Notes: generated by a model from the sequence alone, not told the origin. A stretch of 64,000 nucleotides of DNA from Escherichia coli (GCF_003334255.1 NZ_QOWU01000014.1); one strand, 5' to 3'; shown: positions 17,420 to 40,525, counted from the stretch's first letter. Made by a program: numbers and translations.

Positions 17420-17455
17420 AGAAACTCGCCGGATGAAAAGTCATCCGGCGTCATA

Positions 17456-18158: not shown

Positions 18159-18617
18159 TTACTGACGACCAGAGTGACCAAAGCCGCCTTCACCGCGGTC
18201 GGTGGCGTCGAAATCTTCCACCAGATTAAATTCAGCCTGTACTACCGGAACAAAAATCATCTGGGCGATGCGTTCGCCAGGTTGAATGGTGAAGCTGTCC
18301 TGACCACGGTTCCAAACGGAAATCATCAACTGGCCCTGATAGTCAGAATCGATCAATCCTACCAGGTTACCAAGCACGATACCGTGCTTATGTCCCAATC
18401 CGGAGCGCGGCAGCATCATTGCCGCCAGTGAAGGATCGGCAATATGAATCGCCAGCCCGGTCGGAACCAGCGTAGTGTCACCCGGAGCCAGTTCTACGGC
18501 GTCGTCGAGACAGGCACGCAGGTCAAGTCCGGCAGAGCCAGAGGTGGCATAAGTCGGGAGCGGAAATTCCTTCCCAACGCGCGGGTCCAGAATCTTAACG
18601 TCGATTTTTTTCATCAT
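18159..18617 (-). CDS. dut: dUTP diphosphatase
   Basis: 152 aa [35 protein letters not shown]. Confidence 0.93.
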
Positions 18618-19815: not shown

Positions 19816-19986
19816 GATGATTTTTCCTGTTGGGTGACACCAGAAGTTGGCGATTTTATCACAATACTTTTGTTGTCGTGCCTTCACCTGAGATTCACTT
19901 TGCGAGGCTCTTTCCAGGATTGAAAACTGGCCGTCGATTTAACGGAACGACTATGACAGGATGCGAGCACCACAAAGGAGGTGAAG

Positions 19987-20655
19987 GTGAAAAACAATGC
20001 ACAGCTGTTGATGCCGCGCGAAAAAATGCTGAAGTTTGGTATTAGCGCCTTAACGGATGTCGAGCTGCTGGCGCTATTTCTGCGTACCGGAACGCGCGGT
20101 AAAGATGTATTAACCCTGGCAAAAGAGATGCTGGAGAATTTCGGCTCTCTTTATGGCTTGTTAACCTCTGAATATGAACAATTTAGTGGTGTTCATGGAA
20201 TTGGCGTAGCGAAATTTGCCCAGTTAAAGGGGATTGCTGAACTGGCGCGACGTTACTACAACGTGCGGATGCGTGAAGAAAGCCCTTTACTCAGCCCGGA
20301 GATGACGCGGGAATTTTTACAAAGCCAGCTCACGGGTGAGGAGCGGGAGATCTTTATGGTGATCTTTCTCGACTCCCAACACCGGGTTATAACGCATAGC
20401 CGTCTTTTTTCCGGCACGCTAAACCATGTTGAAGTCCATCCTCGGGAAATTATCCGCGAAGCGATAAAAATAAACGCCTCGGCGCTGATCCTTGCACATA
20501 ATCATCCTTCGGGTTGTGCTGAACCCAGTAAAGCGGATAAACTCATTACTGAACGGATAATAAAGAGTTGTCAGTTCATGGATTTACGCGTGCTCGACCA
20601 TATCGTGATTGGGCGTGGAGAGTATGTTTCTTTTGCCGAACGCGGCTGGATTTAA
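19987..20655 (+). CDS. radC: RadC-like JAB-domain protein
   Basis: 222 aa from second GTG, which has better spacing to the AAAGGAG ribosome-binding site; HNHPSG motif present. Confidence 0.85.
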
Positions 20656-20850
20656 CCCGCTATGCGCGATCCTTCGGGATCTTTGTCTGTTCGGGACTTG
20701 AGCACATCGCTGAGTCAGCGTATACTACGCCACCTTTGAGAATCTCGGGTTTGGCATTTGGGCCTGGCAATCGAGAGTTCACATAGAACTGCGATGACCG
20801 GGCTGTAAAGCCTGACGAGGCGCCAATACCCCATACGAAGCTCGAGCTAA

Positions 20851-21108
<258 letters not shown>

Positions 21109-21125
21109 GTACTTAGAGGAAATAA

Positions 21126-21296
<171 letters not shown>

Positions 21297-21320
21297 TTCT
21301 CGCTTTGATGTAACGAAAAA

Positions 21321-21343
21321 CCTCGCTCCGGCGGGGTTTTTTG
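21321..21343 (+). terminator. rho-independent terminator after rpmG
   Basis: CCTCGC-TCCG-GCGGGG stem-loop followed by TTTTTT. Confidence 0.7.
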
Positions 21344-21393
21344 TTATCTGCTTACCCCCATATTGATTGCATCTGTTCATTCCTGGAGATGCT

Positions 21394-22203
21394 ATGCCTG
21401 AATTACCCGAAGTTGAAACCAGCCGCCGCGGCATAGAACCGCATCTCGTTGGTGCAACCATTCTTCATGCTGTGGTGCGCAACGGACGCTTGCGCTGGCC
21501 GGTTTCAGAAGAGATCTACCGATTAAGCGATCAACCAGTGCTTAGCGTGCAGCGGCGGGCTAAATATCTGCTGCTGGAGCTGCCTGAGGGCTGGATTATC
21601 ATTCATTTGGGGATGTCTGGCAGCCTGCGCATCCTTCCAGAAGAACTTCCCCCTGAGAAGCATGACCATGTTGATTTGGTGATGAGCAACGGCAAAGTGC
21701 TGCGCTACACCGATCCGCGCCGCTTTGGTGCCTGGCTGTGGACCAAAGAGCTGGAAGGGCACAACGTGCTGGCCCATCTTGGACCGGAGCCGCTTAGCGA
21801 CGATTTCAACGGTGAGTACCTGCATCAGAAGTGCGCGAAGAAAAAAACGGCGATTAAACCGTGGCTGATGGATAACAAGCTGGTGGTAGGGGTAGGTAAT
21901 ATTTATGCCAGCGAATCACTGTTTGCGGCGGGGATCCATCCGGATCGGCTGGCGTCATCACTGTCGCTGGCAGAGTGTGAATTGTTAGCTCGGGTGATTA
22001 AAGCGGTGTTGCTGCGTTCGATTGAGCAGGGTGGTACAACGCTGAAAGATTTTCTGCAAAGTGATGGTAAACCGGGCTATTTCGCGCAGGAATTGCAGGT
22101 TTACGGGCGAAAAGGCGAGCCGTGTCGGGTGTGCGGTACGCCGATTGTGGCGACTAAACATGCGCAGCGGGCAACGTTTTATTGTCGGCAGTGCCAGAAG
22201 TAA
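21394..22203 (+). CDS. mutM: formamidopyrimidine-DNA glycosylase
   Basis: 269 aa from internal ATG ([20 protein letters not shown]); C-terminal zinc finger [26 protein letters not shown]. Confidence 0.93.
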
Positions 22204-22212
22204 TTCATGCGC

Positions 22213-22234
22213 GCCGGATGGCATACCATCCGGC
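22213..22234. other. perfect palindrome GCCGGATGG-CATA-CCATCCGGC between convergent mutM and coaD
   Basis: 9-bp inverted repeat in the 38-bp gap between the two stop codons; no T-run on either side. Confidence 0.5.
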
Positions 22235-22241
22235 ATAAACG

Positions 22242-24006
<1,765 letters not shown>

Positions 24007-24357
24007 AGTAAATAGCTGACTTATGGATGTGCTGGGGATTCTATGTATTTAGCTGTGGCTTTACCATTACTTTTCCCGTTTTTGACTTAAATAGCAATTT
24101 ACCCGCCAATTCTTGCTGAACATCTATACTTTTTTTGTATTTTTATGCGATTCATTGATTTCTGCTGTACGTGCAGGAAGGAATCGCAGAGCAACAGTGA
24201 AAGAATATGGTTGCTAATGATTTTATTTGATTGATTTCTTTATTGAAAATCAACAATGTGCTTAAAAATCATTCGGGTCGGATTGCCGCGAAAGAAGTGA
24301 TACACTAGCGCGTCAATATCAGTGCGGTATCAGTATTCAGGTAGCTGTTGAGCCTGG

Positions 24358-24369
24358 GGCGGTAGCGTG
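24358..24369 (+). promoter_or_regulatory. ops element GGCGGTAGCGTG (RfaH recruitment site) in the waaQ leader
   Basis: exact 12-mer about 50 bp upstream of the waaQ start. Confidence 0.8.
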
Positions 24370-24418
24370 CTTTTTCTGCTTCACCTTAATCGGATAATCT
24401 CAACAAAAAGAGTTACTT

Positions 24419-25477
24419 GTGGATAAGCCATTTCGAAGAATTTTGCTCATTAAGATGCGTTTTCATGGGGATATGTTATTAACTACTCCCGTCATTAGTT
24501 CGCTGAAAAAAAATTACCCTGACGCAAAAATCGATGTGCTGCTTTATCAGGACACCATCCCGATCCTGTCTGAAAATCCAGAGATTAACGCGCTCTACGG
24601 CATAAAAAATAAAAAAGCAAAAGCCTCAGAAAAAATTGCCAACTTTTTTCATCTCATCAAGGTATTACGTGCCAATAAGTATGACCTTATCGTCAATCTT
24701 ACCGATCAATGGATGGTTGCTATACTGGTTCGCTTATTAAATGCTCGTGTGAAAATTTCCCAGGATTATCATCATCGGCAGTCTGCTTTTTGGCGTAAAA
24801 GTTTCACCCATTTGGTGCCGTTGCAGGGTGGAAATGTGGTGGAAAGTAACTTATCCGTGCTGACACCATTGGGACTTGATTCGTTGGTGAAGCAGACAAC
24901 CATGAGTTACCCGCCTGCAAGCTGGAAACGTATGCGTCGCGAACTTGATCACGCTGGTGTTGGACAAAATTATGTGGTTATCCAACCTACGGCGCGGCAA
25001 ATCTTCAAATGCTGGGACAACGCCAAGTTTTCCGCTGTGATTGATGCCTTACATGCTAGTGGTTATGAAGTCGTTCTGACGTCCGGCCCGGATAAAGACG
25101 ATCTGGCCTGCGTCAATGAAATTGCGCAGGGATGCCAGACGCCACCAGTAACGGCGCTGGCTGGAAAGGTGACCTTCCCGGAACTTGGTGCGTTAATCGA
25201 TCATGCGCAGCTGTTTATTGGCGTTGATTCCGCACCGGCGCATATTGCCGCTGCAGTTAATACGCCGCTGATATCGCTGTTTGGTGCGACAGACCATATT
25301 TTCTGGCGTCCCTGGTCAAATAACATGATTCAATTCTGGGCGGGAGATTACCGGGAAATGCCAACGCGCGATCAGCGTGACCGAAATGAGATGTATCTTT
25401 CGGTTATTCCGGCGGCAGATGTCATTGCTGCTGTCGATAAATTACTGCCCTTCTCCACGACAGGTACGTCGTTATGA
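24419..25477 (+). CDS. waaQ: LPS heptosyltransferase III (GT9)
   Basis: GT9 N-terminal motif RILLIKMRFHGDMLLTTPVISSL; GTG start as in ORF track, ATG at 24455 is the alternative. Confidence 0.85.
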   Translation: MDKPFRRILLIKMRFHGDMLLTTPVISSLKKNYPDAKIDVLLYQDTIPILSENPEINALYGIKNKKAKASEKIANFFHLIKVLRANKYDLIVNLTDQWMVAILVRLLNARVKISQDYHHRQSAFWRKSFTHLVPLQGGNVVESNLSVLTPLGLDSLVKQTTMSYPPASWKRMRRELDHAGVGQNYVVIQPTARQIFKCWDNAKFSAVIDALHASGYEVVLTSGPDKDDLACVNEIAQGCQTPPVTALAGKVTFPELGALIDHAQLFIGVDSAPAHIAAAVNTPLISLFGATDHIFWRPWSNNMIQFWAGDYREMPTRDQRDRNEMYLSVIPAADVIAAVDKLLPFSTTGTSL

Positions 25478-26598
25478 TCGTTGCTTTTTGTTTATATAAA
25501 TATTTTCCCTTTGGCGGTTTGCAGCGCGATTTTATGCGTATTGCTCAGACAGTCGCCGCCCGAGGTCATCATGTTCGGGTTTATACCCAGTCGTGGGAAG
25601 GCGAATGCCCTGATGTATTTGAACTGATCAAAGTGCCGGTTAAATCGCATACCAATCACGGGCGCAATGCGGAGTATTTTACCTGGGTGCAAAAACATTT
25701 ACGCGAACATCCCGTCGATAAAGTCGTTGGATTCAACAAAATGCCGGGGCTGGACGTTTATTATGCCGCTGATGTTTGTTATGCCGAGAAAGTAGCGCAG
25801 GAGAAAGGCTTTTTCTATCGCCTGACGTCACGTTATCGCCATTATGCCGCCTTTGAGCGGGCAACCTTCGAACAGGGCAAGCCGACACAGCTGCTGATGC
25901 TGACAGATAAGCAAATCGCCGATTTCCAGAAACATTATCAGACTGAAGCGGAGCGTTTTCATATTCTGCCACCGGGGATTTATCCTGATCGTAAATATAG
26001 CCAGCAGCCAGCCAATAGCCGTGAAATCTTCCGTAAGAAGAATGGAATAACCGAACAACAATATTTATTGTTGCAGGTCGGTTCAGACTTCACGCGTAAA
26101 GGTGTCGATCGTTCCATTGAAGCACTTGCTTCTTTACCGGATTCGCTGCGCCACAACACATTGCTATATGTTGTTGGGCAGGATAAACCGCGAAAATTTG
26201 AGGCGCTGGCAGAAAAACGCGGCGTGCGCAGTAATGTTCACTTCTTCTCGGGGCGCAATGATGTCTCGGAATTAATGGCGGCGGCGGATTTATTACTGCA
26301 TCCTGCCTACCAGGAAGCGGCGGGAATTGTGCTGCTGGAAGCGATTACTGCAGGATTACCGGTACTAACAACAGCCGTTTGTGGCTATGCGCCTTATATT
26401 GTCGAGGCCAATTGCGGCGAGGCTATTGCTGAGCCATTCCGCCAGGAAACATTGAATGAGATTTTACGCAAAGCGTTAACGCAATCTTCATTGCGCCAGG
26501 CCTGGGCGGAAAATGCGCGACATTATGCTGATACACAAGATTTATACAGTCTGCCAGAGAAAGCGGCGGATATCATAACGGGTGGTCTGGATGGTTGA
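25474..26598 (+). CDS. waaG: LPS glucosyltransferase I (GT4)
   Basis: 374-aa ORF overlapping waaQ stop by 4 bp. Confidence 0.9.
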
Positions 26599-27388
26599 AC
26601 TTAAAGAGCCGTTTGCCACGTTATGGCGCGGTAAAGATCCTTTTGAGGAAGTTAAAACCTTGCAGGGTGAGATATTTCGTGAACTGGAAACTCGCCGTAC
26701 TCTGCGCTTTGAAATGGCGGGAAAAAGCTATTTTCTCAAATGGCATCGCGGCACGACCCTGAAAGAGATAATCAAAAATTTACTCTCATTGCGGATGCCA
26801 GTATTAGGCGCAGACCGCGAATGGAATGCGATTCATCGACTGCGGGATGTCGGCGTTGATACTATGTATGGGGTGGCATTCGGCGAAAAAGGCATGAATC
26901 CGCTGACCAGAACCTCGTTTATTATTACCGAAGATCTGACACCAACCATAAGTCTGGAAGATTACTGTGCTGACTGGGCGACCAACCCACCAGATGTTCG
27001 CGTAAAGCGTATGCTTATTAAGCGTGTCGCGACGATGGTGCGCGATATGCATGCTGCGGGCATTAATCACCGTGACTGTTATATCTGTCATTTCCTGCTG
27101 CACTTGCCTTTTTCCGGTAAGGAAGAGGAGTTAAAAATTTCGGTAATTGACCTGCACCGGGCGCAGCTTCGCACGCGCGTTCCACGTCGTTGGCGCGATA
27201 AAGATCTTATTGGACTTTATTTTTCTTCGATGAATATTGGCCTGACTCAGCGGGATATCTGGCGGTTTATGAAGGTGTATTTTGCCGCTCCGCTTAAAGA
27301 CATTCTCAAGCAGGAACAAGGACTGCTGTTGCAAGCAGAAGCAAAAGCCACAAAAATCAGGGAAAGAACGATTCGAAAATCGTTGTAA
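26591..27388 (+). CDS. waaP: LPS core heptose(I) kinase
   Basis: 265 aa from internal ATG ([21 protein letters not shown]). Confidence 0.9.
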
Positions 27389-27430
27389 CCCGTAACTTAT
27401 TTTTGCCAAAATTTTGGATACAGAATAAAT

Positions 27431-28438
27431 ATGTCTCAACTCAATGATAGTGACATCATCCTTTTTGAGTATAATTTTCATTATCAAAATATAAGATCTA
27501 AAAATACTCTTGATATAGCATTTGGTATTGACAGAAATTTTCTTTTTGGATGTGGTGTAGCCATCGCATCTATTCTATTAAACAATAGAGAAATCTCTTG
27601 TGAATTTCATGTTTTCACAGATTATATCAGTGATAAAGACAAATTATATTTTTCTGATTTAGCAAAACAATATAATTCAAGAATTAATATTTATGTTATC
27701 AATTGTGATAAGCTGAAGTCATTACCAAGCACGAAAAACTGGACTTACGCAACATATTTTCGATTTATAATTGCAGATTATTTCTATCATAAACATGAAA
27801 AAATACTATATCTTGATGCAGATATTGCTTGCAAGGGTAGTATTAAAGAACTCTTAGATTATCAATTTTCTACTAATGAAATTGCCGCAGTTGTAGCTGA
27901 AAGAGATGTTGAATGGTGGCAAAATCGAGCCTCGGTATTAACTACACCACAGTTAGCTTCTGGATATTTCAATGCTGGTTTTTTACTGATAAATATTGAT
28001 GAGTGGAATCTAAATAACATTTCGTCAAAAGCTATTGAAATGTTGCGTGACCCAGATTGGGTAAGTAAAATCACCCACCTTGATCAAGATGTACTGAATG
28101 TATTATTGAATGGTAAAGTGAAGTTTATTTCGGAGAAATATAATACCCGATATAGTATTAACTATGAATTAAAAGACAAAGTTGATAATCCAGTCAATGA
28201 TGACACCGTGTTTATACACTATGTGGGACCTACAAAACCCTGGCATGAGTGGGCTGACTATCCGGTGTCACGTAGTTTTTTGATCGCCAAAGCAGCTTCT
28301 CCGTGGAGTAAAGAAGATTTACTTAAACCTGTAAATAGCAATCAGTATCGGTATTGTGCAAAACATAAATTTAAACAAAAGCATTATATGGCAGGCATTT
28401 TTAATTATTTAAAGTATTATAAAGAAAAATGCTTCTAA
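27431..28438 (+). CDS. waaI: GT8-family outer-core glycosyltransferase (WaaI-like)
   Basis: 335 aa with GT8 DxD motif YLDADIACKGSI; position after waaP fits the R3 gene order; AT-rich. Confidence 0.7.
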   Translation: MSQLNDSDIILFEYNFHYQNIRSKNTLDIAFGIDRNFLFGCGVAIASILLNNREISCEFHVFTDYISDKDKLYFSDLAKQYNSRINIYVINCDKLKSLPSTKNWTYATYFRFIIADYFYHKHEKILYLDADIACKGSIKELLDYQFSTNEIAAVVAERDVEWWQNRASVLTTPQLASGYFNAGFLLINIDEWNLNNISSKAIEMLRDPDWVSKITHLDQDVLNVLLNGKVKFISEKYNTRYSINYELKDKVDNPVNDDTVFIHYVGPTKPWHEWADYPVSRSFLIAKAASPWSKEDLLKPVNSNQYRYCAKHKFKQKHYMAGIFNYLKYYKEKCF

Positions 28439-28463
28439 AGATTTAAGGTTAAAATAATTCATT

Positions 28464-29171
28464 ATGATATATAATAAAACGATAAATGGGTTGAAAGTTT
28501 TCATAAAAGATAATGATCCCTTTTATGAGCAAGTTCTAAATGACTTTTTAACTTGCAGGGTTAAAACATTAAAAGTTTTTCGTTCTATTGATGATACTAA
28601 AGTCATTCTTATTGACACTGCTCGTGGACCTCTTGTACTTAAAGTTTATGCGCCAAAGCATAAAATGACCGAACGTTTCTTAAAATCTTGCATAAAAAAA
28701 GATTATTATGAAAATTTAATTTATCAAACCGATCGGGTACGTGGTGAAGGCATCCAATCAATTAATGACTATTTTTTGCTAGCTGAACGTAAAACATTAA
28801 ATTTCGCTCATTATTATATTATGCTCATTGAGTATATTGAAGGTGTCGGGTTAAATGAGTATTTGGAAATTTCTGAAGATCTGAAGGATCAATTATCAGA
28901 ATCGATAAAAGAGTTGCATCAGCATGGAATGGTGTCTGGCGATCCTCATAAAGGAAATTTTATAGTATCCGAAAAAGGTTTAAGACTAATTGACCTTTCA
29001 GGTAAAAAAACAACCGCTGTTTTAAAAGCAAAAGATCGCATTGATCTTGAACGGCACTATAATATAAAAAATGAATTGAAAGACTTTGGCTATACATATC
29101 TTATATTCAAAAAGAAAATTAAAAAAGTAATCAGGGATGTAAAAGTCAAACTAGGATTGAAGAGCAAATAA
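28464..29171 (+). CDS. waaY: LPS core heptose(II) kinase
   Basis: 235-aa kinase-like ORF (LVLKVY...HGMVSGDPHKGNF) between the two GT8 genes. Confidence 0.75.
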   Translation: MIYNKTINGLKVFIKDNDPFYEQVLNDFLTCRVKTLKVFRSIDDTKVILIDTARGPLVLKVYAPKHKMTERFLKSCIKKDYYENLIYQTDRVRGEGIQSINDYFLLAERKTLNFAHYYIMLIEYIEGVGLNEYLEISEDLKDQLSESIKELHQHGMVSGDPHKGNFIVSEKGLRLIDLSGKKTTAVLKAKDRIDLERHYNIKNELKDFGYTYLIFKKKIKKVIRDVKVKLGLKSK

Positions 29172-29195
29172 TGATTATGATGAAGGGTAATTAAA

Positions 29196-30209
29196 TTGGA
29201 TTTTAAACATCTTACTCAATTTAAAGATATAATTGAACTGGACAAGCGCCCCGTTAAACTTGATGAACGGGAAACGTTTAATGTCTCATGGGGTATTGAT
29301 GAGAACTACCAGGTTGGGGCTGCGATTTCAATTGCTTCAATTCTTGAAAATAATAAACAAAACAAATTTACCTTTCACATAATCGCTGATTACTTAGACA
29401 AAGAGTATATTGAATTATTATCACAATTAGCAACGAAGTATCAAACAGTAATTAAATTATATCATATTGATTCTGAGCCATTGAAGGCGCTACCTCAATC
29501 AAATATCTGGCCAGTATCTATTTATTATCGTTTGCTTTCATTTGATTATTTTTCTGCGCGATTGGATTCATTATTATATCTTGATGCTGATATCGTCTGT
29601 AAGGGTTCATTGAACGAGTTAATAGCATTAGAGTTTAAAGATGAATATGGGGCAGTGGTAATTGATGTAGATGCTATGCAAAGTAAAAGCGCTGAGCGTT
29701 TGTGTAATGAGGATTTTAACGGTAGCTATTTTAACTCTGGTGTAATGTATATTAATTTACGGGAATGGTTAAAACAAAGACTAACGGAAAAATTCTTTGA
29801 TCTATTATCAGATGAGTCAATTATAAAAAAATTAAAGTACCCGGATCAAGATATTTTAAACTTAATGTTTCTACATCATGCTAAAATATTACCGAGAAAA
29901 TATAATTGTATTTATACTATAAAGTCAGAATTTGAAGAAAAAAATAGTGAATATTACACCCGGTTTATTAATGATGACACTGTCTTCATACATTATACTG
30001 GTATAACTAAGCCATGGCATGATTGGGCGAACTACGCCTCTGCAGATTATTTTCGTAATATTTATAATATATCACCATGGAGAAATATACCTTATAAAAA
30101 AGCTGTTAAAAAACATGAGTACAAAGAAAAATATAAACACTTGCTTTACCAGAAAAAATTTCTCGATGGTGTTTTTACAGCAATTAAATATAATGTTATG
30201 AAAGGTTAA
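29196..30209 (+). CDS. waaJ: GT8-family outer-core glycosyltransferase (WaaJ-like)
   Basis: 337 aa with GT8 motif YLDADIVCKGSL; paralogous to the 27431-28438 ORF. Confidence 0.7.
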   Translation: MDFKHLTQFKDIIELDKRPVKLDERETFNVSWGIDENYQVGAAISIASILENNKQNKFTFHIIADYLDKEYIELLSQLATKYQTVIKLYHIDSEPLKALPQSNIWPVSIYYRLLSFDYFSARLDSLLYLDADIVCKGSLNELIALEFKDEYGAVVIDVDAMQSKSAERLCNEDFNGSYFNSGVMYINLREWLKQRLTEKFFDLLSDESIIKKLKYPDQDILNLMFLHHAKILPRKYNCIYTIKSEFEEKNSEYYTRFINDDTVFIHYTGITKPWHDWANYASADYFRNIYNISPWRNIPYKKAVKKHEYKEKYKHLLYQKKFLDGVFTAIKYNVMKG

Positions 30210-30217
30210 TATACGAG

Positions 30218-31360
30218 ATGGTTGATAAAATAATATTTACGGTTACTCCTATTTTTTCAATTCCTCCTCGCGGAGCGGCTGCTGTTGAAACGTGGATGTA
30301 TCAGGTTGCTCAGCGTACCAATTTTCCAAATCGTATTGTTTGTATCAAAAATCCAGGATACTCAAATTACACCTTTGTTAATGATAATTGTAGTATTCAT
30401 AGGGTTGGATTCAGTCGCATATATAAGCGGTTATTTCAAAAATGGACAAGACTTGATCCTCTTCCATATTCACAGAGAATATTGAATATTGCACATGATT
30501 TTCCTATAACGAAAGAAAGTGTTATTGTAGTTCATAATAGCATGAAGCTATACACTCAAATTCGTAAGCGAGCTCCTCAGGCAAGAGTGGTTATACATAT
30601 GCATAATGCATTTGAACCAAAATTGCTTGAGCAAAATGTTAAAATGATAGTGCCTAGTTTATACTTGAAAAAGTATTACCAATCTTATTTAGCAAATGCA
30701 GATATTGAGATTGTACCAAATGGAATTGATTTAGAAACCTATCAATCTAATTTTCAGCCGATCACTAGAAGCGAACTTAATATCTCCCCTGAAGAGAAAA
30801 TTATTTTTTATGCTGGGCGTATCGTCCCTGACAAAGGCATATTGCTGTTGATGCAATCATTCGAAAAATTGGCCGCTGCTCACAAAAATTTAAAATTAGT
30901 TGTGATTGGTGATTATACAGAAATGAGTAAAAGTGACAAAGGTGCATATCAACGCAATGTCAGGGAAATTGCAAAACGTTTGAAGGATCGTTGCATTATG
31001 TTAGGAAGCATACCGCCTGAAAAGATGCATTGTTATTACCCACTGGCAGATTTAGTCGTCATTCCTTCCCAGTTCCAGGAACCATTTTGCATGGTGGCAA
31101 TTGAAGCTATGGGTGCTGGTAAGCCTGTTTTAGTGAGTACGCGTGGGGGGATGACGGAATTTGTCAAAGAAAATACTACGGGATTCCATTTAAAAGAACC
31201 TATGACTGCAGACTCCATAAGCAGCGATATTTTAAAAACGTTAGCGAATCCTGAATTAACAGCAGTTGCAAAGCAAGGTCAGGACTTTGTGTTTGATCAC
31301 TACAGTTGGGATGGCGTAACTCAAAGATTCGAAGAGGTTATTCATAATTGGTTTGAATAA
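30218..31360 (+). CDS. waaD: GT4-family glycosyltransferase (WaaD-like, R3 outer core)
   Basis: 380 aa with retaining-GT4 C-terminal motif (FQEPFCMVAIEAMGAGKPV); last gene of the waaQ operon before convergent waaL. Confidence 0.65.
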   Translation: MVDKIIFTVTPIFSIPPRGAAAVETWMYQVAQRTNFPNRIVCIKNPGYSNYTFVNDNCSIHRVGFSRIYKRLFQKWTRLDPLPYSQRILNIAHDFPITKESVIVVHNSMKLYTQIRKRAPQARVVIHMHNAFEPKLLEQNVKMIVPSLYLKKYYQSYLANADIEIVPNGIDLETYQSNFQPITRSELNISPEEKIIFYAGRIVPDKGILLLMQSFEKLAAAHKNLKLVVIGDYTEMSKSDKGAYQRNVREIAKRLKDRCIMLGSIPPEKMHCYYPLADLVVIPSQFQEPFCMVAIEAMGAGKPVLVSTRGGMTEFVKENTTGFHLKEPMTADSISSDILKTLANPELTAVAKQGQDFVFDHYSWDGVTQRFEEVIHNWFE

Positions 31361-31362
31361 AT

Positions 31363-31395
31363 AAAAAGGCCGCATTATGCAGCCTTTTTTATTTT
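31363..31395. terminator. bidirectional rho-independent terminator between waaD and waaL
   Basis: AAAAAGGC...GCCTTTTTT perfect stem with A-run on one side and T-run on the other. Confidence 0.8.
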
Positions 31396-32604
31396 TTACT
31401 TGTTTTTCATCGCTAATAATAAGCCGGCGTAAACGCCTAATAAATTTGGTTCAATTTGTTCTACGTTTCCACGGATAACAAAATAACCTATAAAAGATAG
31501 TAAGATTATATAATATGCATTATATGGTGAGCGATATTTATTCTTGACGCCATTTTTTATACACTCTTTCAATATTGCACAGTATAGCATCATAAGACTT
31601 ACCAGCCCTAATAAACCAGTGCCAAACCAGATGAATAGCGCAAAATTATGTGGCCCTATTGATTGTCTAAAGGTCCATTCTGGATAATCAATGACACGTT
31701 TATTATAGACATCTTTATATGCAACGTTACCGTAACCATAACCAATAACAGGATTTTCTAATATTAGATCGAGTGCGCTGCCTTGAGTACCATTTGCATA
31801 GCGATAAGAACTATTAGTTTGTTGAAGTTTATACGTTAGCTTTGCGGTCATCTCCTTATGTGTGAAAATAACCGACAATGCAATGATGGCAACCATTACT
31901 CCTACTAATAGTAACTTCCATTGTTTAAACATCAGAATCCATATTAATCCAATGACTAACACGGAAAGCCAGGCCCCTCTGGATAAAGTTCCTAATATCA
32001 GAAAAATAAAAATAACGCTTAGAACCACAAAAGAAATGCGGTATTTTGCTGATTTGATAAGCCAGAGATTTAACAATGCAGGGAATAAAAAGACCATCGA
32101 GTCAGAAATGCTACGGTGTCTATAATCTGCGAATGGCATTATCCCTTGTTGATAGTCCTTATAATAGGTAATCAATTCAGAAAAACAGCGTAAGCCCAAC
32201 GCACTAATAAATGAGAAGAAAACGATTTTTTCGACATCTTCTCTTTTCTCGTCTCTCAATATGATCGGTATTGCTATTGTGCATAGTAAAGTATTCTCAA
32301 TAATAGCTTTGAAAATTTCCTTCATGCTAGCACCTGCATCAGGGGATTGAAGAAGTGACAGCAATGCAGCAATAGTTAATATGGCAACACTACCAAAAAG
32401 AAATGTTTTAAATAGTGAGAGATAGTGTTTTGGCCGTTTGCAGAGATAGACGATTGTCGTTATTGTCATAAGAATAACAATAAGATGTTTATACCTTGTA
32501 ATCCCACCCAAAAAATAGGTGGTAATGAATAAGAATACGAGAGCTCTGTTCCAGTACGCTATCCAGTTTTTTTTCTCGAGAGAGAAAAATAATGTTGAGG
32601 TCAT
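31396..32604 (-). CDS. waaL: O-antigen ligase
   Basis: 402-aa polytopic membrane protein downstream of waaC in the hldD-waaF-waaC operon; AT-rich. Confidence 0.8.
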   Translation of the reverse strand: MTSTLFFSLEKKNWIAYWNRALVFLFITTYFLGGITRYKHLIVILMTITTIVYLCKRPKHYLSLFKTFLFGSVAILTIAALLSLLQSPDAGASMKEIFKAIIENTLLCTIAIPIILRDEKREDVEKIVFFSFISALGLRCFSELITYYKDYQQGIMPFADYRHRSISDSMVFLFPALLNLWLIKSAKYRISFVVLSVIFIFLILGTLSRGAWLSVLVIGLIWILMFKQWKLLLVGVMVAIIALSVIFTHKEMTAKLTYKLQQTNSSYRYANGTQGSALDLILENPVIGYGYGNVAYKDVYNKRVIDYPEWTFRQSIGPHNFALFIWFGTGLLGLVSLMMLYCAILKECIKNGVKNKYRSPYNAYYIILLSFIGYFVIRGNVEQIEPNLLGVYAGLLLAMKNK

Positions 32605-33593
32605 CTTATCTCCGATGTCAACTTATTGGTTATTATTTCAAGATTTAAATTTTGAAAAACGGTTTGAGCTGGCAAATCTGCAAGAGACATACTTGTAGAA
32701 CGACACTCTACTTGATTCTTCCCATACCCACCAATTAATCCCGGATCGGTTGGTCCATAAACCGTGATATTGGGTCTATCCAGTGCCGCCGTTAAATGGC
32801 TTAACCCCGTATCCACCGACACTACAAATTTAGCCCCGGCCAGCACGCGGGCAACGCCTTCCAGACTCATCTTCGGCAATACTTCAACATAAGCAAATCC
32901 TTCCGCCAGTCGTTTCGCCCGTTCTTCCTCATGCGGCGCGCCCCACGGAAGTTTAATCCGTATTCCTGAATCAGCCAGTAAACCAATCAATTCTCGCCAG
33001 TGTTCTTCCGGCCAGTGTTTATCATCACGGGTCGTCGCATGAAGAAATACGGCATATTCGCCAGCATCTGTAGGCAGGTTCGTCAGAAAATGCTGTGCGA
33101 TAGCATAATCGCCCTGGGTTTGCGGTTTGCTATAGCCCAAACTTTTGGCAAACAGTTCGCGGGTGCGTTCTACGGCGTGCTGCTGTTTTGCAATATGATG
33201 CTTACGATTGTAAAACAGGCTGGCTAAAGGTTCGCGAGCGGTTTGCCAGTCCATGCCATGCTTTACGCCATGCGCCAGACGCGTCACCAGCGCCGCGCTT
33301 TTTACCAGCCCCTGAGCGTCGATAACTGCGTCATAGTTCTCTGCTTGTAGCGCTTCACGAAACGCTTTGCGTTCCGCTTTTATGGGGGCCGAGAACCAGG
33401 CTTTACGCCAGCGACGTATTGCCACAGGAATAACTCGCTCAACGGCAGCGTGCCAGGAAGGAATCTGTGCGAACCCTTCTTCCACCACCCAGTCAAACTT
33501 AATCCCTGGGATTGCCTGCTGGGCATCAGTGAGTGCGGGCAACGTATGGAGAACATCGCCCATCGACGATGTTTTAACGATCAAAACCCGCAT
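32601..33593 (-). CDS. waaC: LPS heptosyltransferase I (GT9)
   Basis: 330 aa MRVLIVKTSSMGDVLHTLPAL; stop overlaps waaL start. Confidence 0.9.
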   Translation of the reverse strand: MRVLIVKTSSMGDVLHTLPALTDAQQAIPGIKFDWVVEEGFAQIPSWHAAVERVIPVAIRRWRKAWFSAPIKAERKAFREALQAENYDAVIDAQGLVKSAALVTRLAHGVKHGMDWQTAREPLASLFYNRKHHIAKQQHAVERTRELFAKSLGYSKPQTQGDYAIAQHFLTNLPTDAGEYAVFLHATTRDDKHWPEEHWRELIGLLADSGIRIKLPWGAPHEEERAKRLAEGFAYVEVLPKMSLEGVARVLAGAKFVVSVDTGLSHLTAALDRPNITVYGPTDPGLIGGYGKNQVECRSTSMSLADLPAQTVFQNLNLEIITNKLTSEIR

Positions 33594-33596
33594 CCG

Positions 33597-34643
33597 TCAG
33601 GCTTCCTCTTGTAACAATAGCGCGTTGAGTTCTTCCAGTACGCGCTGGGGAGTAATGTCGATTAAGCTCTGGTGATAACCCTCCGCAGCGTCACCTTTAC
33701 GCACTTTGTGATAGCCGGTAATCAAACGGATCACGCGCGCTTTATGGGATAGCGGCGGTGTGAAGTCCGGGCTACTCGGACCATACAGGGCAACCAGCGG
33801 ACGATTGAGCGCCGCCGCAACATGCATCAGGCCAGAATCGTTAGTGACAATGGCTTTACAGGCTGCAATCAGGATAACCGCTTGATCAAGCTGTGTTTCC
33901 CCCGCCAGGTTCCGACACCATGCCTGCTGCTCGGTATTCAAAGCGGCAAGAATCTCATTGCCCGCTTCATGATCTTTCGCCGAGCCAAACAGAACCACCT
34001 GATAACCTTCATCAATCAGCTGCTTTGCCAGCTCCGCATAGTGGTAGTGTGGCCAGCGTTTTGCCGGACCAAACTCCGCACCCGGGCAAAAACCAATCAT
34101 CGGACGTTCTGATGAAAGCGAAAATTGATTACAGGTATATGATTTTTCACCTTCGCTCACCTGCAACTGCGGCCATAACAATGGCTGCGGCAGATCTTGT
34201 GCTGTGCGCATAATGCCTTTGTCATAGGCCAGCGCTATATAGCGTTCCACCATTAGCGGCCAGGCTTCTTTATCGAGCACGCGTACATCGTTGAGTAAAC
34301 CGTAGCGCATCTCGCCGCGCCAGCCGGTGCGATGAGGAATACCCGCGAAGAAAGGCACTAATGCAGATTTGAAGGAGTTGGGTAAGACGTAGGCGCGGTC
34401 GTAGCGCTTTTCACGCAGGCTATGACCCAGTTTGCGGCGTTCGCCGATTTCCAGCGCTCCGTGACCGAGAGGCATAGGAATAGCTTCGTTAACTTCCGGC
34501 ATCCGCGATAATAATGGACGGCACCATGCCGGTGCCATCACATCGATTATCGCCTGGGGATAGCGCGCCTGGAGCGTGCGATAGAGACTTTGCGACATCA
34601 TCATGTCGCCAACCCAAGACGGGCCGATCACCAGTATTTTCAT
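33597..34643 (-). CDS. waaF: LPS heptosyltransferase II (GT9)
   Basis: 348 aa MKILVIGPSWVGDMMMSQSLYRTL. Confidence 0.92.
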   Translation of the reverse strand: MKILVIGPSWVGDMMMSQSLYRTLQARYPQAIIDVMAPAWCRPLLSRMPEVNEAIPMPLGHGALEIGERRKLGHSLREKRYDRAYVLPNSFKSALVPFFAGIPHRTGWRGEMRYGLLNDVRVLDKEAWPLMVERYIALAYDKGIMRTAQDLPQPLLWPQLQVSEGEKSYTCNQFSLSSERPMIGFCPGAEFGPAKRWPHYHYAELAKQLIDEGYQVVLFGSAKDHEAGNEILAALNTEQQAWCRNLAGETQLDQAVILIAACKAIVTNDSGLMHVAAALNRPLVALYGPSSPDFTPPLSHKARVIRLITGYHKVRKGDAAEGYHQSLIDITPQRVLEELNALLLQEEA

Positions 34644-34652
34644 GCAGAGCTC

Positions 34653-35585
34653 TTATGCGTCGCGATTCAGCCAGGCCATGTATTCCGTTACACCTTCAGC
34701 AACGGTTTTGAACGGTTTGTCGTAACCCGCCGCGCGCAGATTCGTCAGATCTGCCTGAGTGAACGCCTGATAGCGGCCTTTCAGTTTATCCGGGAACGGA
34801 ATGTATTCGATCTGGCCTTTCTTGTGATAAGCCAGCGTAGCATCAGCTACCGCCTGGAAGGATTCCGCACGACCAGTACCGAGATTGAAGATGCCGGAAA
34901 CGCCATTTTCCAGGAACCACAGATTCACATCAGCCACGTCGCCCACATAGACGAAGTCGCGTTTGAAGTTCTCGCTACCTTCAAACAGCTTCGGTGATTC
35001 ACCGTTGTTAAGCTGGGTGTTGAGATGGAAAGCGACGCTCGCCATGCTGCCTTTATGGCCTTCACGCGGTCCATAAACGTTGAAATAACGGAAGCCAACA
35101 ATCTGCGAGTTCGCTTCAGGCAGGATTTGACGAACATATTCATCAAACAGGAATTTTGAGTAACCGTAGACGTTCAACGGTTTTTCGTACTCGCGGGATT
35201 CAATAAAGTCGGAGGTGCGTCCGCCGTAGGTGGCTGCGGAAGAAGCGTACAGGAACGGGATTTCACGCTCCAGGCAGTAGTGCAGCAGCTCCTTGGAGTA
35301 TTGATAGTTGTTATCCATCATATACTTGCCGTCCCACTCGGTGGTGGAAGAGCACGCGCCTTCGTGGAAAATCGCTTCGACATCGCCGAACTCTTCGCCA
35401 GCCATAATCTGGATCAGGAAGTCTTCCTTATCCATATAGTCTGCGATATTCAGATCCACCAGGTTCACAAACTTGGTGCCGTCTTTCAGGTTGTCCACCA
35501 CCAGAATATCGGTGATGCCTTTATCATTCAGGGCTTTAACGATGTTGCTGCCGATAAAGCCCGCGCCGCCGGTAACGATGATCAT
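34653..35585 (-). CDS. hldD: ADP-L-glycero-D-manno-heptose 6-epimerase
   Basis: 310 aa [23 protein letters not shown] (Rossmann GxGxxG). Confidence 0.93.
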
Positions 35586-35873
35586 AACTGTAACCTTCGA
35601 ATTATGGAGTCAGAGACAATCTCAGACACGAATGTCTGTAATCATACCATCACATCCGAATCCCTTCAGCCCTTTACATAGAGGTGCAAGGATGCTAATT
35701 GCAACAAACTAGTTTGGGTTTTAGCTAGTCCTTCATGGCGGATGTTGGTTTTGCATGTGAATAGTGCTTTAGTATCAATATTCCGATGTATGATAAATAA
35801 CGGAAGCATTTGAATGGATAATATACAGTATACATTCTATTAATATTTATGATATAATTCTTTTTTTATATTA

Positions 35874-36746
35874 ATGGTCTTATTAGTAATGAAATCATCC
35901 ACCACAATTATCACTGCATATTTTGACATTGGTAGAGGGGATTGGACTGCTAATAAAGGGTTCCGTGAAAAACTAGCTCGTTCAGTTGATGTTTATTTTA
36001 GTTACTTTGAGCGTCTGGCCGCACTTGAAAATGAGATGATTATTTTCACTTCTCCCGATTTGAAACCAAGGGTTGAAGCGATTCGCAACGGAAAACCAAC
36101 AACGGTTATCGTTATCGATATAAAAAAGAAATTTAGATATATCAGAAGTCGTATCGAAAAAATTCAAAAAGATGAGTCGTTTACAAATAGACTTGAGCCT
36201 CGACAATTAAAAAACCCAGAGTACTGGTCACCAGAGTATGTTTTGGTATGTAACCTTAAGGCCTATTTTGTAAATAAAGCTATCAACATGGGCTTAGTGA
36301 AAACGCCTCTTGTTGCGTGGATAGATTTTGGCTATTGCCGTAAGCCAAATGTAACTCGAGGATTGAAAATTTGGGATTTCCCATTTGATGAAAGTAAGAT
36401 GCATCTTTTCACTATAAAAAAAGGGCTTACTGTCACATCTCAACAACAGGTTTTTGATTTCATGATTGGCAATCATGTATATATTATTGGGGGCGCAATT
36501 GTTGGTTCACAGCATAAATGGAAAGAATTCTATAAATTAGTTCTGGAAAGTCAAAAAATAACACTAAATAATAACATTGTGGACGATGACCAGGGCATTT
36601 TTGTCATGTGCTATTACAAACGCCCCGATCTCTTCAACCTAAACTATCTGGGGAGAGGAAAATGGTTCGATTTGTTTCGCTGCTTCAGGAGTAACACTTT
36701 AGGGGCAAAAATGCAGGCGCTGAGAATTTTCCTTTCAAGAAAATAG
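35874..36746 (+). CDS. htrL: HtrL (YibB) family protein
   Basis: 290-aa AT-rich ORF between hldD and kbl; alternative start at 35889 gives 285 aa. Confidence 0.75.
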   Translation: MVLLVMKSSTTIITAYFDIGRGDWTANKGFREKLARSVDVYFSYFERLAALENEMIIFTSPDLKPRVEAIRNGKPTTVIVIDIKKKFRYIRSRIEKIQKDESFTNRLEPRQLKNPEYWSPEYVLVCNLKAYFVNKAINMGLVKTPLVAWIDFGYCRKPNVTRGLKIWDFPFDESKMHLFTIKKGLTVTSQQQVFDFMIGNHVYIIGGAIVGSQHKWKEFYKLVLESQKITLNNNIVDDDQGIFVMCYYKRPDLFNLNYLGRGKWFDLFRCFRSNTLGAKMQALRIFLSRK

Positions 36747-37020
36747 GTTTCCCTCCATTAGTGGGTAGCGTTTTGATACCAACTGAGATAGGAAAAATGA
36801 TGCTTTGGCATCATTTTTTCTTTTTATATCAATGCAGTAAAATCAATCATCATTATGCCCAGCCAAAACTGTACAGTTTTTCTACTATCTGTAGGTGTTG
36901 AGAGACATCAAGTTACACGTTATTTATCCTGAATTTTGCAGAAGTGTTAACGCGTTATCTCGTCGCGACCTATAAGTTTGGGTAATATGTGCTGGAATTT
37001 GCCCTGTCTGGAGAATCGCA

Positions 37021-38217
37021 ATGCGTGGAGAATTTTATCAGCAGTTAACCAACGATCTGGAAACCGCACGGGCGGAAGGGTTGTTTAAAGAAGAGCGCAT
37101 TATTACGTCTGCGCAGCAAGCAGATATCACTGTGGCTGATGGAAGCCACGTCATTAACTTTTGTGCCAACAACTATCTCGGGCTGGCGAATCATCCTGAT
37201 CTGATTGCGGCGGCAAAGGCGGGAATGGATTCTCACGGTTTCGGCATGGCTTCGGTGCGTTTTATTTGCGGCACTCAGGACAGCCATAAAGAGCTTGAAC
37301 AAAAACTGGCGGCCTTCCTGGGGATGGAAGATGCGATTCTCTACTCTTCCTGCTTTGATGCTAACGGTGGCCTGTTTGAAACGCTTCTGGGTGCGGAAGA
37401 CGCCATTATCTCCGACGCACTGAACCACGCGTCTATTATTGATGGTGTGCGTCTGTGCAAAGCTAAACGCTATCGCTATGCCAACAACGATATGCAGGAG
37501 CTGGAAGCACGTCTGAAAGAAGCGCGTGAAGCCGGTGCGCGTCATGTGCTGATCGCCACCGATGGTGTGTTCTCAATGGACGGCGTGATTGCCAACCTGA
37601 AGGGCGTTTGCGATCTGGCAGATAAATATGATGCCCTGGTGATGGTAGACGACTCCCACGCGGTCGGTTTTGTCGGTGAAAATGGTCGTGGTTCCCATGA
37701 ATACTGCGATGTGATGGGCCGGGTCGATATTATCACCGGTACGCTTGGTAAAGCGCTGGGCGGGGCTTCTGGTGGTTATACCGCGGCGCGCAAAGAAGTG
37801 GTTGAGTGGCTGCGCCAGCGTTCTCGTCCGTACCTGTTCTCCAACTCGCTGGCACCGGCCATTGTTGCCGCGTCCATCAAAGTACTGGAGATGGTCGAAG
37901 CGGGCAGCGAACTGCGTGACCGTCTGTGGGCGAACGCGCGTCAGTTCCGTGAGCAAATGTCGGCGGCGGGCTTTACCCTGGCGGGAGCCGATCACGCCAT
38001 TATTCCGGTCATGCTTGGTGATGCGGTAGTGGCGCAGAAATTTGCCCGTGAGCTGCAAAAAGAGGGCATTTACGTTACCGGTTTCTTCTATCCGGTCGTT
38101 CCGAAAGGTCAGGCGCGTATTCGTACCCAGATGTCTGCGGCGCATACCCCTGAGCAAATTACGCGTGCAGTAGAAGCATTTACGCGTATTGGTAAACAAC
38201 TGGGCGTTATCGCCTGA
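37021..38217 (+). CDS. kbl: 2-amino-3-ketobutyrate CoA ligase
   Basis: 398-aa PLP-dependent transferase. Confidence 0.93.
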
Positions 38218-38226
38218 GGATGTGAG

Positions 38227-39252
38227 ATGAAAGCGTTATCCAAACTGAAAGCGGAAGAGGGCATCTGGATGACCGACGTTCCTGTACCGGAACTCGGGCA
38301 TAACGATCTGCTGATTAAAATCCGTAAAACAGCCATCTGCGGGACTGACGTTCACATCTATAACTGGGATGAGTGGTCGCAAAAAACCATCCCGGTGCCG
38401 ATGGTCGTGGGCCATGAATATGTCGGTGAAGTGGTAGGTATTGGTCAGGAAGTGAAAGGCTTCAAGATCGGCGATCGCGTTTCTGGCGAAGGCCATATCA
38501 CCTGTGGTCATTGCCGCAACTGTCGTGGTGGTCGTACCCATTTGTGCCGCAACACGATAGGCGTTGGTGTTAATCGCCCGGGCTGCTTTGCCGAATATCT
38601 GGTGATCCCGGCATTCAACGCCTTCAAAATCCCCGACAATATTTCCGATGACTTAGCCGCAATTTTTGATCCCTTCGGTAACGCCGTGCATACCGCGCTG
38701 TCGTTTGATCTGGTGGGCGAAGATGTGCTGGTTTCTGGTGCAGGTCCGATAGGTATTATGGCTGCGGCGGTGGCGAAACACGTTGGTGCACGCAATGTGG
38801 TGATCACCGATGTTAACGAATACCGCCTTGAGCTGGCGCGCAAAATGGGTATCACCCGTGCGGTTAACGTCGCGAAAGAAAACCTTAATGATGTGATGGC
38901 TGAACTGGGCATGACCGAAGGCTTTGATGTCGGTCTGGAAATGTCCGGCGCGCCGCCAGCGTTTCGTACCATGCTCGATACCATGAACCACGGCGGTCGT
39001 ATTGCGATGCTGGGTATTCCACCGTCTGACATGTCTATCGACTGGACCAAAGTGATCTTTAAAGGCTTGTTCATTAAAGGCATTTACGGTCGTGAGATGT
39101 TTGAAACCTGGTACAAGATGGCGGCGCTGATTCAGTCTGGCCTCGATCTCTCGCCGATCATTACCCATCGTTTCTCTATCGATGATTTCCAGAAGGGCTT
39201 TGACGCCATGCGTTCGGGCCAGTCCGGGAAAGTTATTCTGAGCTGGGATTAA
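38227..39252 (+). CDS. tdh: L-threonine 3-dehydrogenase
   Basis: 341-aa zinc alcohol dehydrogenase family ([15 protein letters not shown]). Confidence 0.93.
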
Positions 39253-39256
39253 CACG

Positions 39257-39285
39257 AAAAAGGGCTGGTATTCCAGCCCTTTTGC
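39257..39285 (+). terminator. rho-independent terminator after tdh
   Basis: AAAAAGGGCTGG-TATT-CCAGCCCTTTT hairpin. Confidence 0.8.
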
Positions 39286-39490
39286 CTGAGGATAATCCGT
39301 TAAATATGTAAAATCCTGTCAGTGTAATAAAGATATCGTAATTGCGCTGATCTCTTATATAGCTGCTCTCATTATCTCTCTACCCTGAAGTGACTCTCTC
39401 ACCTGTAAAAATAATATCTCACAGGCTTAATAGTTTCTTAATACAAAGCCTGTAAAACGTCAGGATAACTTCAGAGGTCGTCGGTAATTT

Positions 39491-40525
39491 ATGATGAACA
39501 GCACCAATAAACTTAGTGTTATTATTCCGTTATATAATGCGGGCGATGATTTCCGCACTTGTATGGAATCTTTAATTACGCAAACCTGGACTGCTCTGGA
39601 AATCATTATTATTAACGATGGTTCAACGGATAATTCTGTTGAAATAGCAAAGCATTACGCAGAAAACTATCCGCACGTTCGTTTGTTGCATCAGGCGAAT
39701 GCTGGCGCATCGGTGGCGCGTAATCGTGGGATCGAGGTGGCAACGGGCAAATATGTCGCTTTTGTCGATGCTGACGATGAAGTCTATCCCACCATGTACG
39801 AAACGCTGATGACCATGGCGTTAGAGGACGACCTCGATGTAGCGCAGTGCAACGCTGACTGGTGTTTTCGTGAAACGGGAGAAACCTGGCAATCTATCCC
39901 CAGCGATCGCCTTCGCTCAACCGGTGTATTAACCGGCCCGGACTGGCTGCGGATGGGGCTTTCTTCGCGCCGTTGGACTCACGTTGTCTGGATGGGGGTT
40001 TATCGCCGCGATGTTATTGTTAAAAATAACATTAAATTTATTGCCGGATTACATCATCAGGATATTGTCTGGACAACAGAATTCATGTTTAATGCGCTGC
40101 GTGCGCGATATACCGAGCAATCATTATATAAATATTATCTGCATAATACGTCAGTGAGTCGGTTGCATAGACAAGGGAATAAAAACCTTAATTATCAACG
40201 TCACTATATTAAGATTACCCGCCTGCTGGAGAAATTAAATCGAAATTATGCCGACAAAATTACGATTTATCCGGAATTTCATCAGCAAATAACTTACGAA
40301 GCATTGCGTGTTTGCCATGCGGTGCGCAAAGAGCCGGATATTCTTACCCGCCAACGGATGATTGCCGAGATATTTACTTCCGGTATGTATAAGCGCCTGA
40401 TTACCAATGTGCGCAGCGTGAAGGTGGGTTACCAGGCGTTACTGTGGTCTTTCCGCTTATGGCAATGGCGCGACAAAACGCGGTCGCACCATCGCATTAC
40501 GCGTAGCGCCTTTAATTTGCGCTAG
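39491..40525 (+). CDS. waaH: GT2-family glycosyltransferase WaaH (YibD)
   Basis: 344 aa with GT2 N-terminal motif LSVIIPLYNAGDDF and DAD motif. Confidence 0.85.
   Translation: MMNSTNKLSVIIPLYNAGDDFRTCMESLITQTWTALEIIIINDGSTDNSVEIAKHYAENYPHVRLLHQANAGASVARNRGIEVATGKYVAFVDADDEVYPTMYETLMTMALEDDLDVAQCNADWCFRETGETWQSIPSDRLRSTGVLTGPDWLRMGLSSRRWTHVVWMGVYRRDVIVKNNIKFIAGLHHQDIVWTTEFMFNALRARYTEQSLYKYYLHNTSVSRLHRQGNKNLNYQRHYIKITRLLEKLNRNYADKITIYPEFHQQITYEALRVCHAVRKEPDILTRQRMIAEIFTSGMYKRLITNVRSVKVGYQALLWSFRLWQWRDKTRSHHRITRSAFNLR

Follow-up and report, generated by a model that had tools for sequence, protein, structure and literature searches.

R3 is one of the five textbook types of the Escherichia coli lipopolysaccharide (LPS) core, next to K-12, R1, R2 and R4, and its outer-core genes occupy the variable region of the waa (rfa) locus. 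The low G+C content of this region has been reported and read as horizontal transfer, recombinational exchange has been proposed as the mechanism behind its variation, and no homologue of its central part outside Escherichia and Shigella was reported (PMC8715443). For R3, homology arms for deleting waaI, waaJ, waaD and waaG in the prototype strain F653 have been printed (PMC9927288), a second set of deletion arms was designed on Shigella flexneri 2a 2457T (PMC3184986), and nine oligonucleotides are available for core typing in silico or by polymerase chain reaction (PMC13293308, Table 2). Here we describe the waa locus on a 64,000-nt stretch of E. coli DNA (NZ_QOWU01000014.1 of assembly GCF_003334255.1), referred to below as the window. 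All positions count from its first letter, and the families of its open reading frames (ORFs) were assigned with Pfam and NCBIfam profiles. This locus is almost certainly the R3 allele, an AT-rich cassette that is probably exchanged by homologous recombination. An earlier account drawn from the DNA alone, hereafter the sequence-only reading, had called the region R3 (waaI-waaY-waaJ-waaD, waaL) and not K-12, and the gene order concurs with that call, as do four independent tests: the typing primers, the deletion arms of the two reference strains, matches to complete genomes and a comparison with the other core types.

Downstream of waaQ-waaG-waaP, the sequence-only reading had proposed a GT8 glycosyltransferase, a heptose kinase, a second GT8 enzyme and a GT4 enzyme, followed by a convergent ligase; ORFs lie at exactly the coordinates it gave, and the Pfam and NCBIfam profiles agree on their families. 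The first, waaI (27431–28438, forward strand), encodes 335 amino acids with the Pfam domains Glyco_transf_8 and Glyco_transf_8C and scores 619.6 bits, against a cutoff of 461, with NF011718 (LPS 3-alpha-galactosyltransferase). It is followed by the heptose II kinase gene waaY (28464–29171, forward, 235 amino acids), which matches Pfam WaaY at 312.8 bits and NF007684 (RfaY) at 390.5 bits, and whose product shares 51–58% amino acid identity with WaaY of other core types. The third gene, waaJ (29196–30209, forward, 337 amino acids, Glyco_transf_8 and Glyco_transf_8C), has a TTG start with a GAAGGG motif 8 nt upstream and an in-frame TGA at 29181–29183; its coordinates equal those of the coding sequence WP_000346017.1 predicted by the Prokaryotic Genome Annotation Pipeline (PGAP). 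The last R3 outer-core transferase gene, waaD (30218–31360, forward, 380 amino acids), encodes a GT4 enzyme (Pfam Glycos_transf_1) that scores 770.5 bits with NF012028 (PRK15484, WaaK family). On the reverse strand, waaL (31396–32604, 402 amino acids) encodes the R3-type O-antigen ligase (Pfam Wzy_C; NF012031, RfaL, 692.7 bits) and closes the hldD-waaF-waaC-waaL operon, with a 4-nt overlap (ATGA) between the waaC stop codon and the waaL start codon.

The published R3 references match this block directly. Only two of the nine typing oligonucleotides bind in the window, R3-R at 29280–29302 in waaJ and R3-F at 30281–30300 in waaD, both with 0 mismatches and giving the published product size of 1,021 bp; the other seven have no site in the window, even at 3 mismatches. 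As controls, the typing script assigns MG1655 to K-12 (1,442 bp) and the sampled loci L003 to R4 (380 bp), L005 and L006 to R2 (610 bp) and L004 to R1. In L004, from E. coli O145 RM8995-C1, the in silico R1 amplicon measures 852 bp for a published 842 bp, and the GT2 gene at the waaV position (7282–8516 of that locus) is frameshifted. The typing paper (2025) describes the 'waaD' targeted by its R3 primers as the ADP-heptose 6-epimerase gene, rfaD/hldD (PMC13293308). This is a name collision: R3-F actually lies inside the GT4 gene waaD, 4.3 kb from hldD (34653–35585).

The F653 arms for waaI, waaJ and waaD (about 540 nt) are all 100% identical to the window and bracket the first, third and fourth ORFs. 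The six S. flexneri 2a arms (180 nt) bracket the same three genes, also at 100%, and set in immediately downstream of the initiation codons (27431, 29196 and 30218). Since the waaJ arm starts right after the start codon at 29196, the TTG start of waaJ is confirmed. Across 5426 complete E. coli genomes, the block is present at full length and at least 95% identity in 1364 (about 25%), many of them O157:H7. Strain O157:H7 2-6-2 shows 5 differences in 5 kb of the block (99.9% nucleotide identity), while strain G6/7 shows no difference from the window in the block or in 12000–36999 and 2 in the 29,174 positions compared. The window thus comes from an isolate that closely resembles G6/7 but is distinct from it. 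Both strains carry identical protein accessions for WaaI, WaaJ, WaaD and WaaL.

We also compared the transferases and the ligase with those of the other core types, and found no better-fitting type among K-12, R1, R2 and R4. The block proteins reach 40–58% amino acid identity to their best counterparts in these four types, or find no match; WaaL has no blastp match to the K-12, R1 or R4 ligase. The chance that the cluster represents one of these types, or a hybrid in the style of R2 and K-12, is practically nil. Hybrids between types have been reported (PMC13293308), and among the other E. coli types R2 comes nearest, with 57% identity between WaaD and R2 WaaK and 51.5% between the two ligases. 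However, the R1, R2, R4 and K-12 primers have no site at 3 or fewer mismatches, most of 27285–32712 is unaligned to MG1655, and waaS, waaB, waaZ, waaT, waaW, waaV, waaX and waaU, including the waaB and waaZ of R2, are absent from the window. In addition, waaL is convergent here but co-directional with the waaQ operon in R1 and R4, which excludes these two types by itself. Near-identity to O157:H7 extends over the whole length of each of the five block genes, which leaves no internal hybrid junction, and on this ground a hybrid or novel core type was rejected. No direct evidence against the R3 assignment was found.

The cassette reaches slightly beyond the 27431–32604 of the sequence-only reading. 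In blastn comparisons with R1 and R4 loci, nucleotide identity of 98.8–99.2% stops exactly at the waaP stop codon (27388) and returns at 32710–32713, inside waaC and 109 nt from its 3′ end. These junctions place the R3-specific cassette at 27389–32712 (5324 bp), over which K-12, R1, R2 and R4 are either unaligned or yield fragments of about 65–75% identity. Consistent with a junction inside waaC, the compared E. coli WaaC proteins are alike up to ...YGKNQ (GENQ, one substitution, in the O157:H7 strain) and then diverge into type-specific C-terminal tails, and in non-R3 genomes the alignment to waaC does not begin until query base 61–64. By this alignment and the blastn junctions, the last ~37 codons of waaC (32601–32712, reverse strand) form a core-type-specific 3′ end with the R3 tail VECRSTSMSLADLPAQTVFQNLNLEIITNKLTSEIR. 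WaaC measures 330 amino acids in R3 against 319–320 in K-12, R4 and R2.

The genes on either side differ in how far they are shared. To the left, all on the forward strand, lie waaQ (24419–25477), an R1/R3/R4-class allele of the heptosyltransferase III gene (NF007742, 709 bits); waaG (25474–26598), the GT4 gene for the first outer-core glucose, annotated as waaG in the G6/7 locus that is identical over 12000–36999; and the heptose I kinase gene waaP (26591–27388; NF011703, 479.6 bits), whose stop codon forms the left edge of the R3-specific segment. The view of waaP as a conserved flank holds against R1 and R4 (98–99% amino acid identity) and fails against K-12 and R2 (84%). WaaQ is likewise 99.1% identical to R1 and R4 and 73.2% to K-12, and WaaG 99% and 89.6%, respectively. 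To the right, the remainder of waaC, waaF and hldD (32713–35585, reverse strand) show 1 difference from K-12 MG1655, at 34743, and WaaF and HldD are 100% identical in amino acid sequence. An 87-amino-acid ORF antisense to waaL (31862–32125) does not resemble K-12 YibX; in DNA this AT-rich it is probably fortuitous.

The sequence-only reading had judged the block markedly AT-rich by inspection, and a windowed calculation of G+C content (GC) bears this out: 0.332 over 27389–32712 against 0.509 in the rest of the window, depressed relative to both the left flank (0.488) and the right flank (0.524). All other 5324-bp windows have a GC of at least 0.410 (mean 0.514, standard deviation 0.029), and the GC of third codon positions (GC3) is 0.24–0.34 in the five block genes versus 0.46–0.63 in their neighbours. 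The further claim, that low GC is a sign of horizontal origin, goes too far: the outer-core blocks of K-12, R1, R2 and R4 have a GC of 0.333–0.355, with K-12 itself at 0.333, the Cedecea locus described below is low as well, and there are no mobility genes. The presence of low GC in five core types and in Cedecea points to an old property that persists across genera. Judged by composition, low GC is a shared, old feature of the locus and not a marker of recent R3 import.

This bears on the idea that the block is a recent foreign island whose donor, a low-GC organism from beyond the Enterobacteriaceae, would still show in its unameliorated composition. The contrast of 0.33 with 0.51 and a GC3 as low as 0.24 would fit such an event, and PMC8715443 interprets the low G+C in terms of horizontal transfer, but we regard a recent import of this kind as improbable. 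GC is equally low in all E. coli types, and the syntenic Cedecea locus, with 71–75% protein identity, has a GC of 0.37 between flanks of ~0.53. No integrase, transposase or insertion sequence is found in the block, where the five genes occupy all the coding space; gaps of 8–42 nt and the 4-nt overlap of waaC and waaL leave no room for mobility genes. An Rfam scan of the whole window matched only a JUMPstart element and no tRNA. Each junction lies within a conserved gene or at its end, unlike those of a mobile genomic island, with no search aimed at flanking direct repeats. Finally, a WaaL search among 5.8 billion proteins returned E. coli R3 clusters at 97–99% identity, then Cedecea at 71%, Silvania at 65% and Salmonella at 54%. 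No WaaL relative among these proteins falls between 71% and 97%, so that no recent donor is visible.

It is possible, and we hold it tentatively, that the R3 cassette is instead an old enterobacterial waa allele rather than an import, with Cedecea as its closest named relative and its low GC actively maintained. If this is true, the five core types would be long-lived alleles, possibly older than the species. Phages or immunity would exert the balancing selection that maintains them, and homologous recombination would shuffle them.

The chromosome around the cassette closely resembles that of K-12. The window is collinear with MG1655. Of its 64 1-kb bins, 36 carry two differences or fewer, and the first 12 kb and the 5.8 kb from 32713 to 38500 carry two each. 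Divergence becomes dense at a sharp boundary, position 24095 between waaA and waaQ, and stays so as far as 32712. The full segment that differs from K-12 (24095–32712) comprises the waaQ leader and waaQGP at 74–78% nucleotide identity, followed by the cassette, in which only fragments of ~64–69% in waaI and waaY align. Just left of this segment, positions 23001–23500 show 1 difference from K-12 versus 12 from O157:H7. To the right of 32713 the window follows K-12 while O157:H7 is 1–2% away, and inside the block the reverse is true. A block that is O157-like inside and K-12-like just outside is the signature of allelic exchange between near-identical chromosomes. We infer a K-12-like chromosome that differs from K-12 by allelic exchange over about 24095–32712, through homologous recombination in the flanks. 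The cassette would then be one of five alternative alleles that are swapped between strains by recombination in conserved flanking genes, the mechanism also proposed in PMC8715443.

Other parts of the window are mosaic too. Patches of about 98–99% identity to MG1655 at 12001–23000, 38501–40500 and 48001–53000 lie amid identical sequence and are probably further recombination tracts. The dinD region (14001–15000) is 88.7% identical to K-12, and within it 14501–15000 shows 3 differences from O157:H7 versus 100 from K-12.

Three points weigh against this account of an exchanged R3 cassette. The first is that waaQGP differs from O157:H7 at 5–11 sites per 500 bp, so that either a tract imported in one step had a donor unlike O157, or the region is itself a mosaic. 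The second concerns direction, as the recombinant may be either K-12 or this strain. The third is the donor sugar of WaaD, on which the sources are inconsistent. In the passages of PMC9927288 that cite Kaniuk et al. 2004, WaaI is an alpha-1,3-galactosyltransferase that adds the galactose at hexose II (HexII), WaaJ adds the glucose at HexIII and WaaD adds a glucose onto HexIII. WaaD is treated as an N-acetylglucosamine (GlcNAc) transferase in PMC3184986, and the PGAP/NCBIfam product name is 'lipopolysaccharide N-acetylglucosaminyltransferase'.

The same flanks qualify what the core type says about the host. The sequence-only reading had placed the host outside the K-12 lineage. This is right insofar as the host is not laboratory K-12, given an intact rph, patches of ~98% identity and its identity to wild isolates, and goes too far in that the flanks are essentially identical to those of MG1655. 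All five core types occur in phylogroup A (PMC8715443, PMC13293308), with R3 at 11.9% (PMC13293308). Together with the K-12-identical flanks, this means that core type says little about lineage, and it is a poor lineage marker. A laboratory K-12 derivative with an engineered or transduced R3 locus is exceedingly unlikely. Such an origin would account for the long parts of the flanks that match MG1655 at 99.9–100%, the Rhs-associated region at 59–64 kb among them. Yet rph (15996–16712) is full length (238 amino acids) where the MG1655 allele is truncated, so that the host is not a laboratory strain of the MG1655/W3110 type. The patches at 12–23, 38.5–40.5 and 48–53 kb also argue against it, as does the central 25 kb: many wild isolates, with human, pig, seawater and sewage sources, carry it at 100% identity, G6/7, G8 and B-1109 among them. 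By these comparisons the host is a wild, K-12-like strain.

Two further AT-rich segments lie outside the cassette. Between hldD and kbl, an insert at 35634–36916 (GC 0.37) carries the htrL/yibB coding sequence (35889–36746). The window shares this insert with K-12, O157:H7, strain 23CRST028 and Cedecea, and the sampled R1, R2 and R4 loci (L003–L006) lack it, which makes it a presence/absence polymorphism that adjoins the waa locus. The segment at 59000–63500 (GC 0.33–0.39), downstream of the rhsA core, corresponds to yibA, yibJ and yibG in K-12 and is 99.6–100% identical to MG1655.

The leader of the waaQ operon contains, 50 nt ahead of waaQ, a full-length JUMPstart element (24331–24369, forward strand; Rfam RF01707, E = 1.2e-10, 55.2 bits where the gathering threshold is 35), in which 24358–24369 is the ops sequence GGCGGTAGCGTG. 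JUMPstart/ops recruits RfaH, which enables RNA polymerase to transcribe a long operon, and JUMPstart with ops in the leader is the arrangement of an RfaH-regulated polysaccharide operon. Intergenic gaps along waaQ-G-P-I-Y-J-D measure 8–42 nt, and a sigma-70 scan for internal promoters gave no signal (31 sites versus 30.4 expected). The 35-nt gap between waaD and waaL is filled by a GC-containing hairpin of 12 bp (31363–31389), found in a terminator scan and bordered by A and T runs. From this structure we infer that the hairpin is probably a bidirectional intrinsic terminator, which would end both converging operons. The ops-core octamer GGCGGTAG occurs 8 times in the window, at 5095, 13458, 17016, 19284, 24358, 34847, 50640 and 54893, versus 1.55 expected (no shuffle out of 100 gave more than 5). 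JUMPstart holds just one of these copies, at 24358, and codon usage may be a cause of the excess.

Taken together with sugar specificities and RfaH dependence from the literature, this layout suggests how the core would be assembled. The RfaH-dependent waaQ-G-P-I-Y-J-D operon behind JUMPstart/ops would build the inner-core decorations and the R3 outer core. WaaQ would add heptose III (HepIII), WaaP would phosphorylate HepI and WaaY HepII. WaaG would add the first glucose (GlcI), followed by galactose (Gal) from WaaI, GlcII from WaaJ and the terminal hexose from WaaD. The R3 ligase WaaL, made from the convergent hldD-waaF-waaC-waaL operon, would then attach O antigen to the completed core.

The R3 structure, as outlined in the literature, has a GlcI-Gal-GlcII-GlcIII backbone and a GlcNAc branch. 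A preprint, in the part that cites Kaniuk et al. 2004, attributes the GlcNAc on the outer-core Gal to an unknown enzyme and the GlcNAc on HepIII to the plasmid-borne WabB. On this account, the waa locus alone probably does not encode the complete R3 core. The 'RfbU-like' GT4 gene pO157p80 is a candidate for wabB. On pO157 Sakai, this GT4 gene occupies 47223–48766 beside a polysaccharide deacetylase fragment, and it is found in 548 of the 5426 genomes, 547 times on plasmids, so that a close copy is lacking from the majority of the 1364 R3 genomes.

A further LPS gene, waaH (39491–40525), is intact in the window and identical to K-12 at 342 of 345 positions. It is a pseudogene both in G6/7, where codon 262 reads TAA in place of GAA (position 40274 of the window), and in O157:H7 2-6-2, which has a frameshift. 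A remark in the literature has it that the WaaH-dependent glucuronic acid (GlcUA) modification is not seen on R3 cores, and these pseudogenes fit the missing modification.

Rough or semi-rough E. coli are recognised by different phages, antibodies and some predators according to their core type, which also sets the residue that accepts O antigen, and the R3 identity of the host is thus a useful annotation. It is an ordinary one, since the central points are textbook knowledge or recently published. Two modest additions are the mapping of a core-type difference between near-identical chromosomes, with junctions at ~24.1 kb and at 32712/32713 in waaC, and a syntenic, equally AT-rich R3-like locus in Cedecea.

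Among the known systems, the window locus is indistinguishable in layout from R3 of F653, O157:H7 and S. flexneri 2a, with waaQ-G-P-I-Y-J-D converging on waaL-waaC-waaF-hldD and no difference within the block. R3 O157:H7 differs in its phylogroup E background, which is K-12-like here, and in waaQGP, which is 1–2% apart. K-12 (MG1655, waaQ-G-P-S-B-O-J-Y-Z-U, waaL) shares the site, the three-operon layout, a convergent waaL and an AT-rich outer-core block, but has seven outer-core genes in place of four, and its waaS, waaB, waaZ and waaU have no counterpart here. Amino acid identities to K-12 are 57% for WaaI/O, 56% for WaaY, 40% for WaaJ, 73% for WaaQ, 90% for WaaG and 84% for WaaP, with none detectable for WaaL.

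R2 resembles the window in its convergent waaL, with the ligases at 51.5%, and in a terminal PRK15484 GT4 enzyme, WaaK, that is 57.3% identical to WaaD. It differs in a GT8 gene at the waaS position, in waaB and waaZ, in the order O-J-Y-Z-K and in a K-12-class waaP (84%). The R1 and R4 loci share the waaQGP allele class (98–99% amino acid identity) and the same junctions at the waaP stop and inside waaC. Their outer cores differ, with waaO-T-Y-W plus waaV in R1 or waaX in R4, a co-directional waaL on the opposite strand from that of the window, and outer-core proteins at 43–55% identity. The Salmonella waa locus has a convergent waaL as well, with a ligase 54% identical to that of the window.

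Outside E. coli and Shigella, the locus of Cedecea sp. FDAARGOS_727 (CP050966.1; 10001–14505 of the sampled locus L011) and C. davisae comes closest among named relatives. It differs from the window in having no waaY between the GT8 genes and no waaH. Otherwise it is a syntenic R3-like locus of GT8-GT8-GT4 genes and a convergent waaL, in which gpmM-envC-yibQ-tdh-kbl-htrL-hldD-waaF-waaC-waaL converges on waaQ-G-P-GT8-GT8-GT4. Amino acid identity to the window is 72% for WaaI, 72% for WaaJ, 75.5% for WaaD and 71% for WaaL, at about 71% nucleotide identity. The Cedecea locus also has an R3-like WaaC tail, and its block is AT-rich like that of E. coli, with a GC of 0.372 between flanks of ~0.53.

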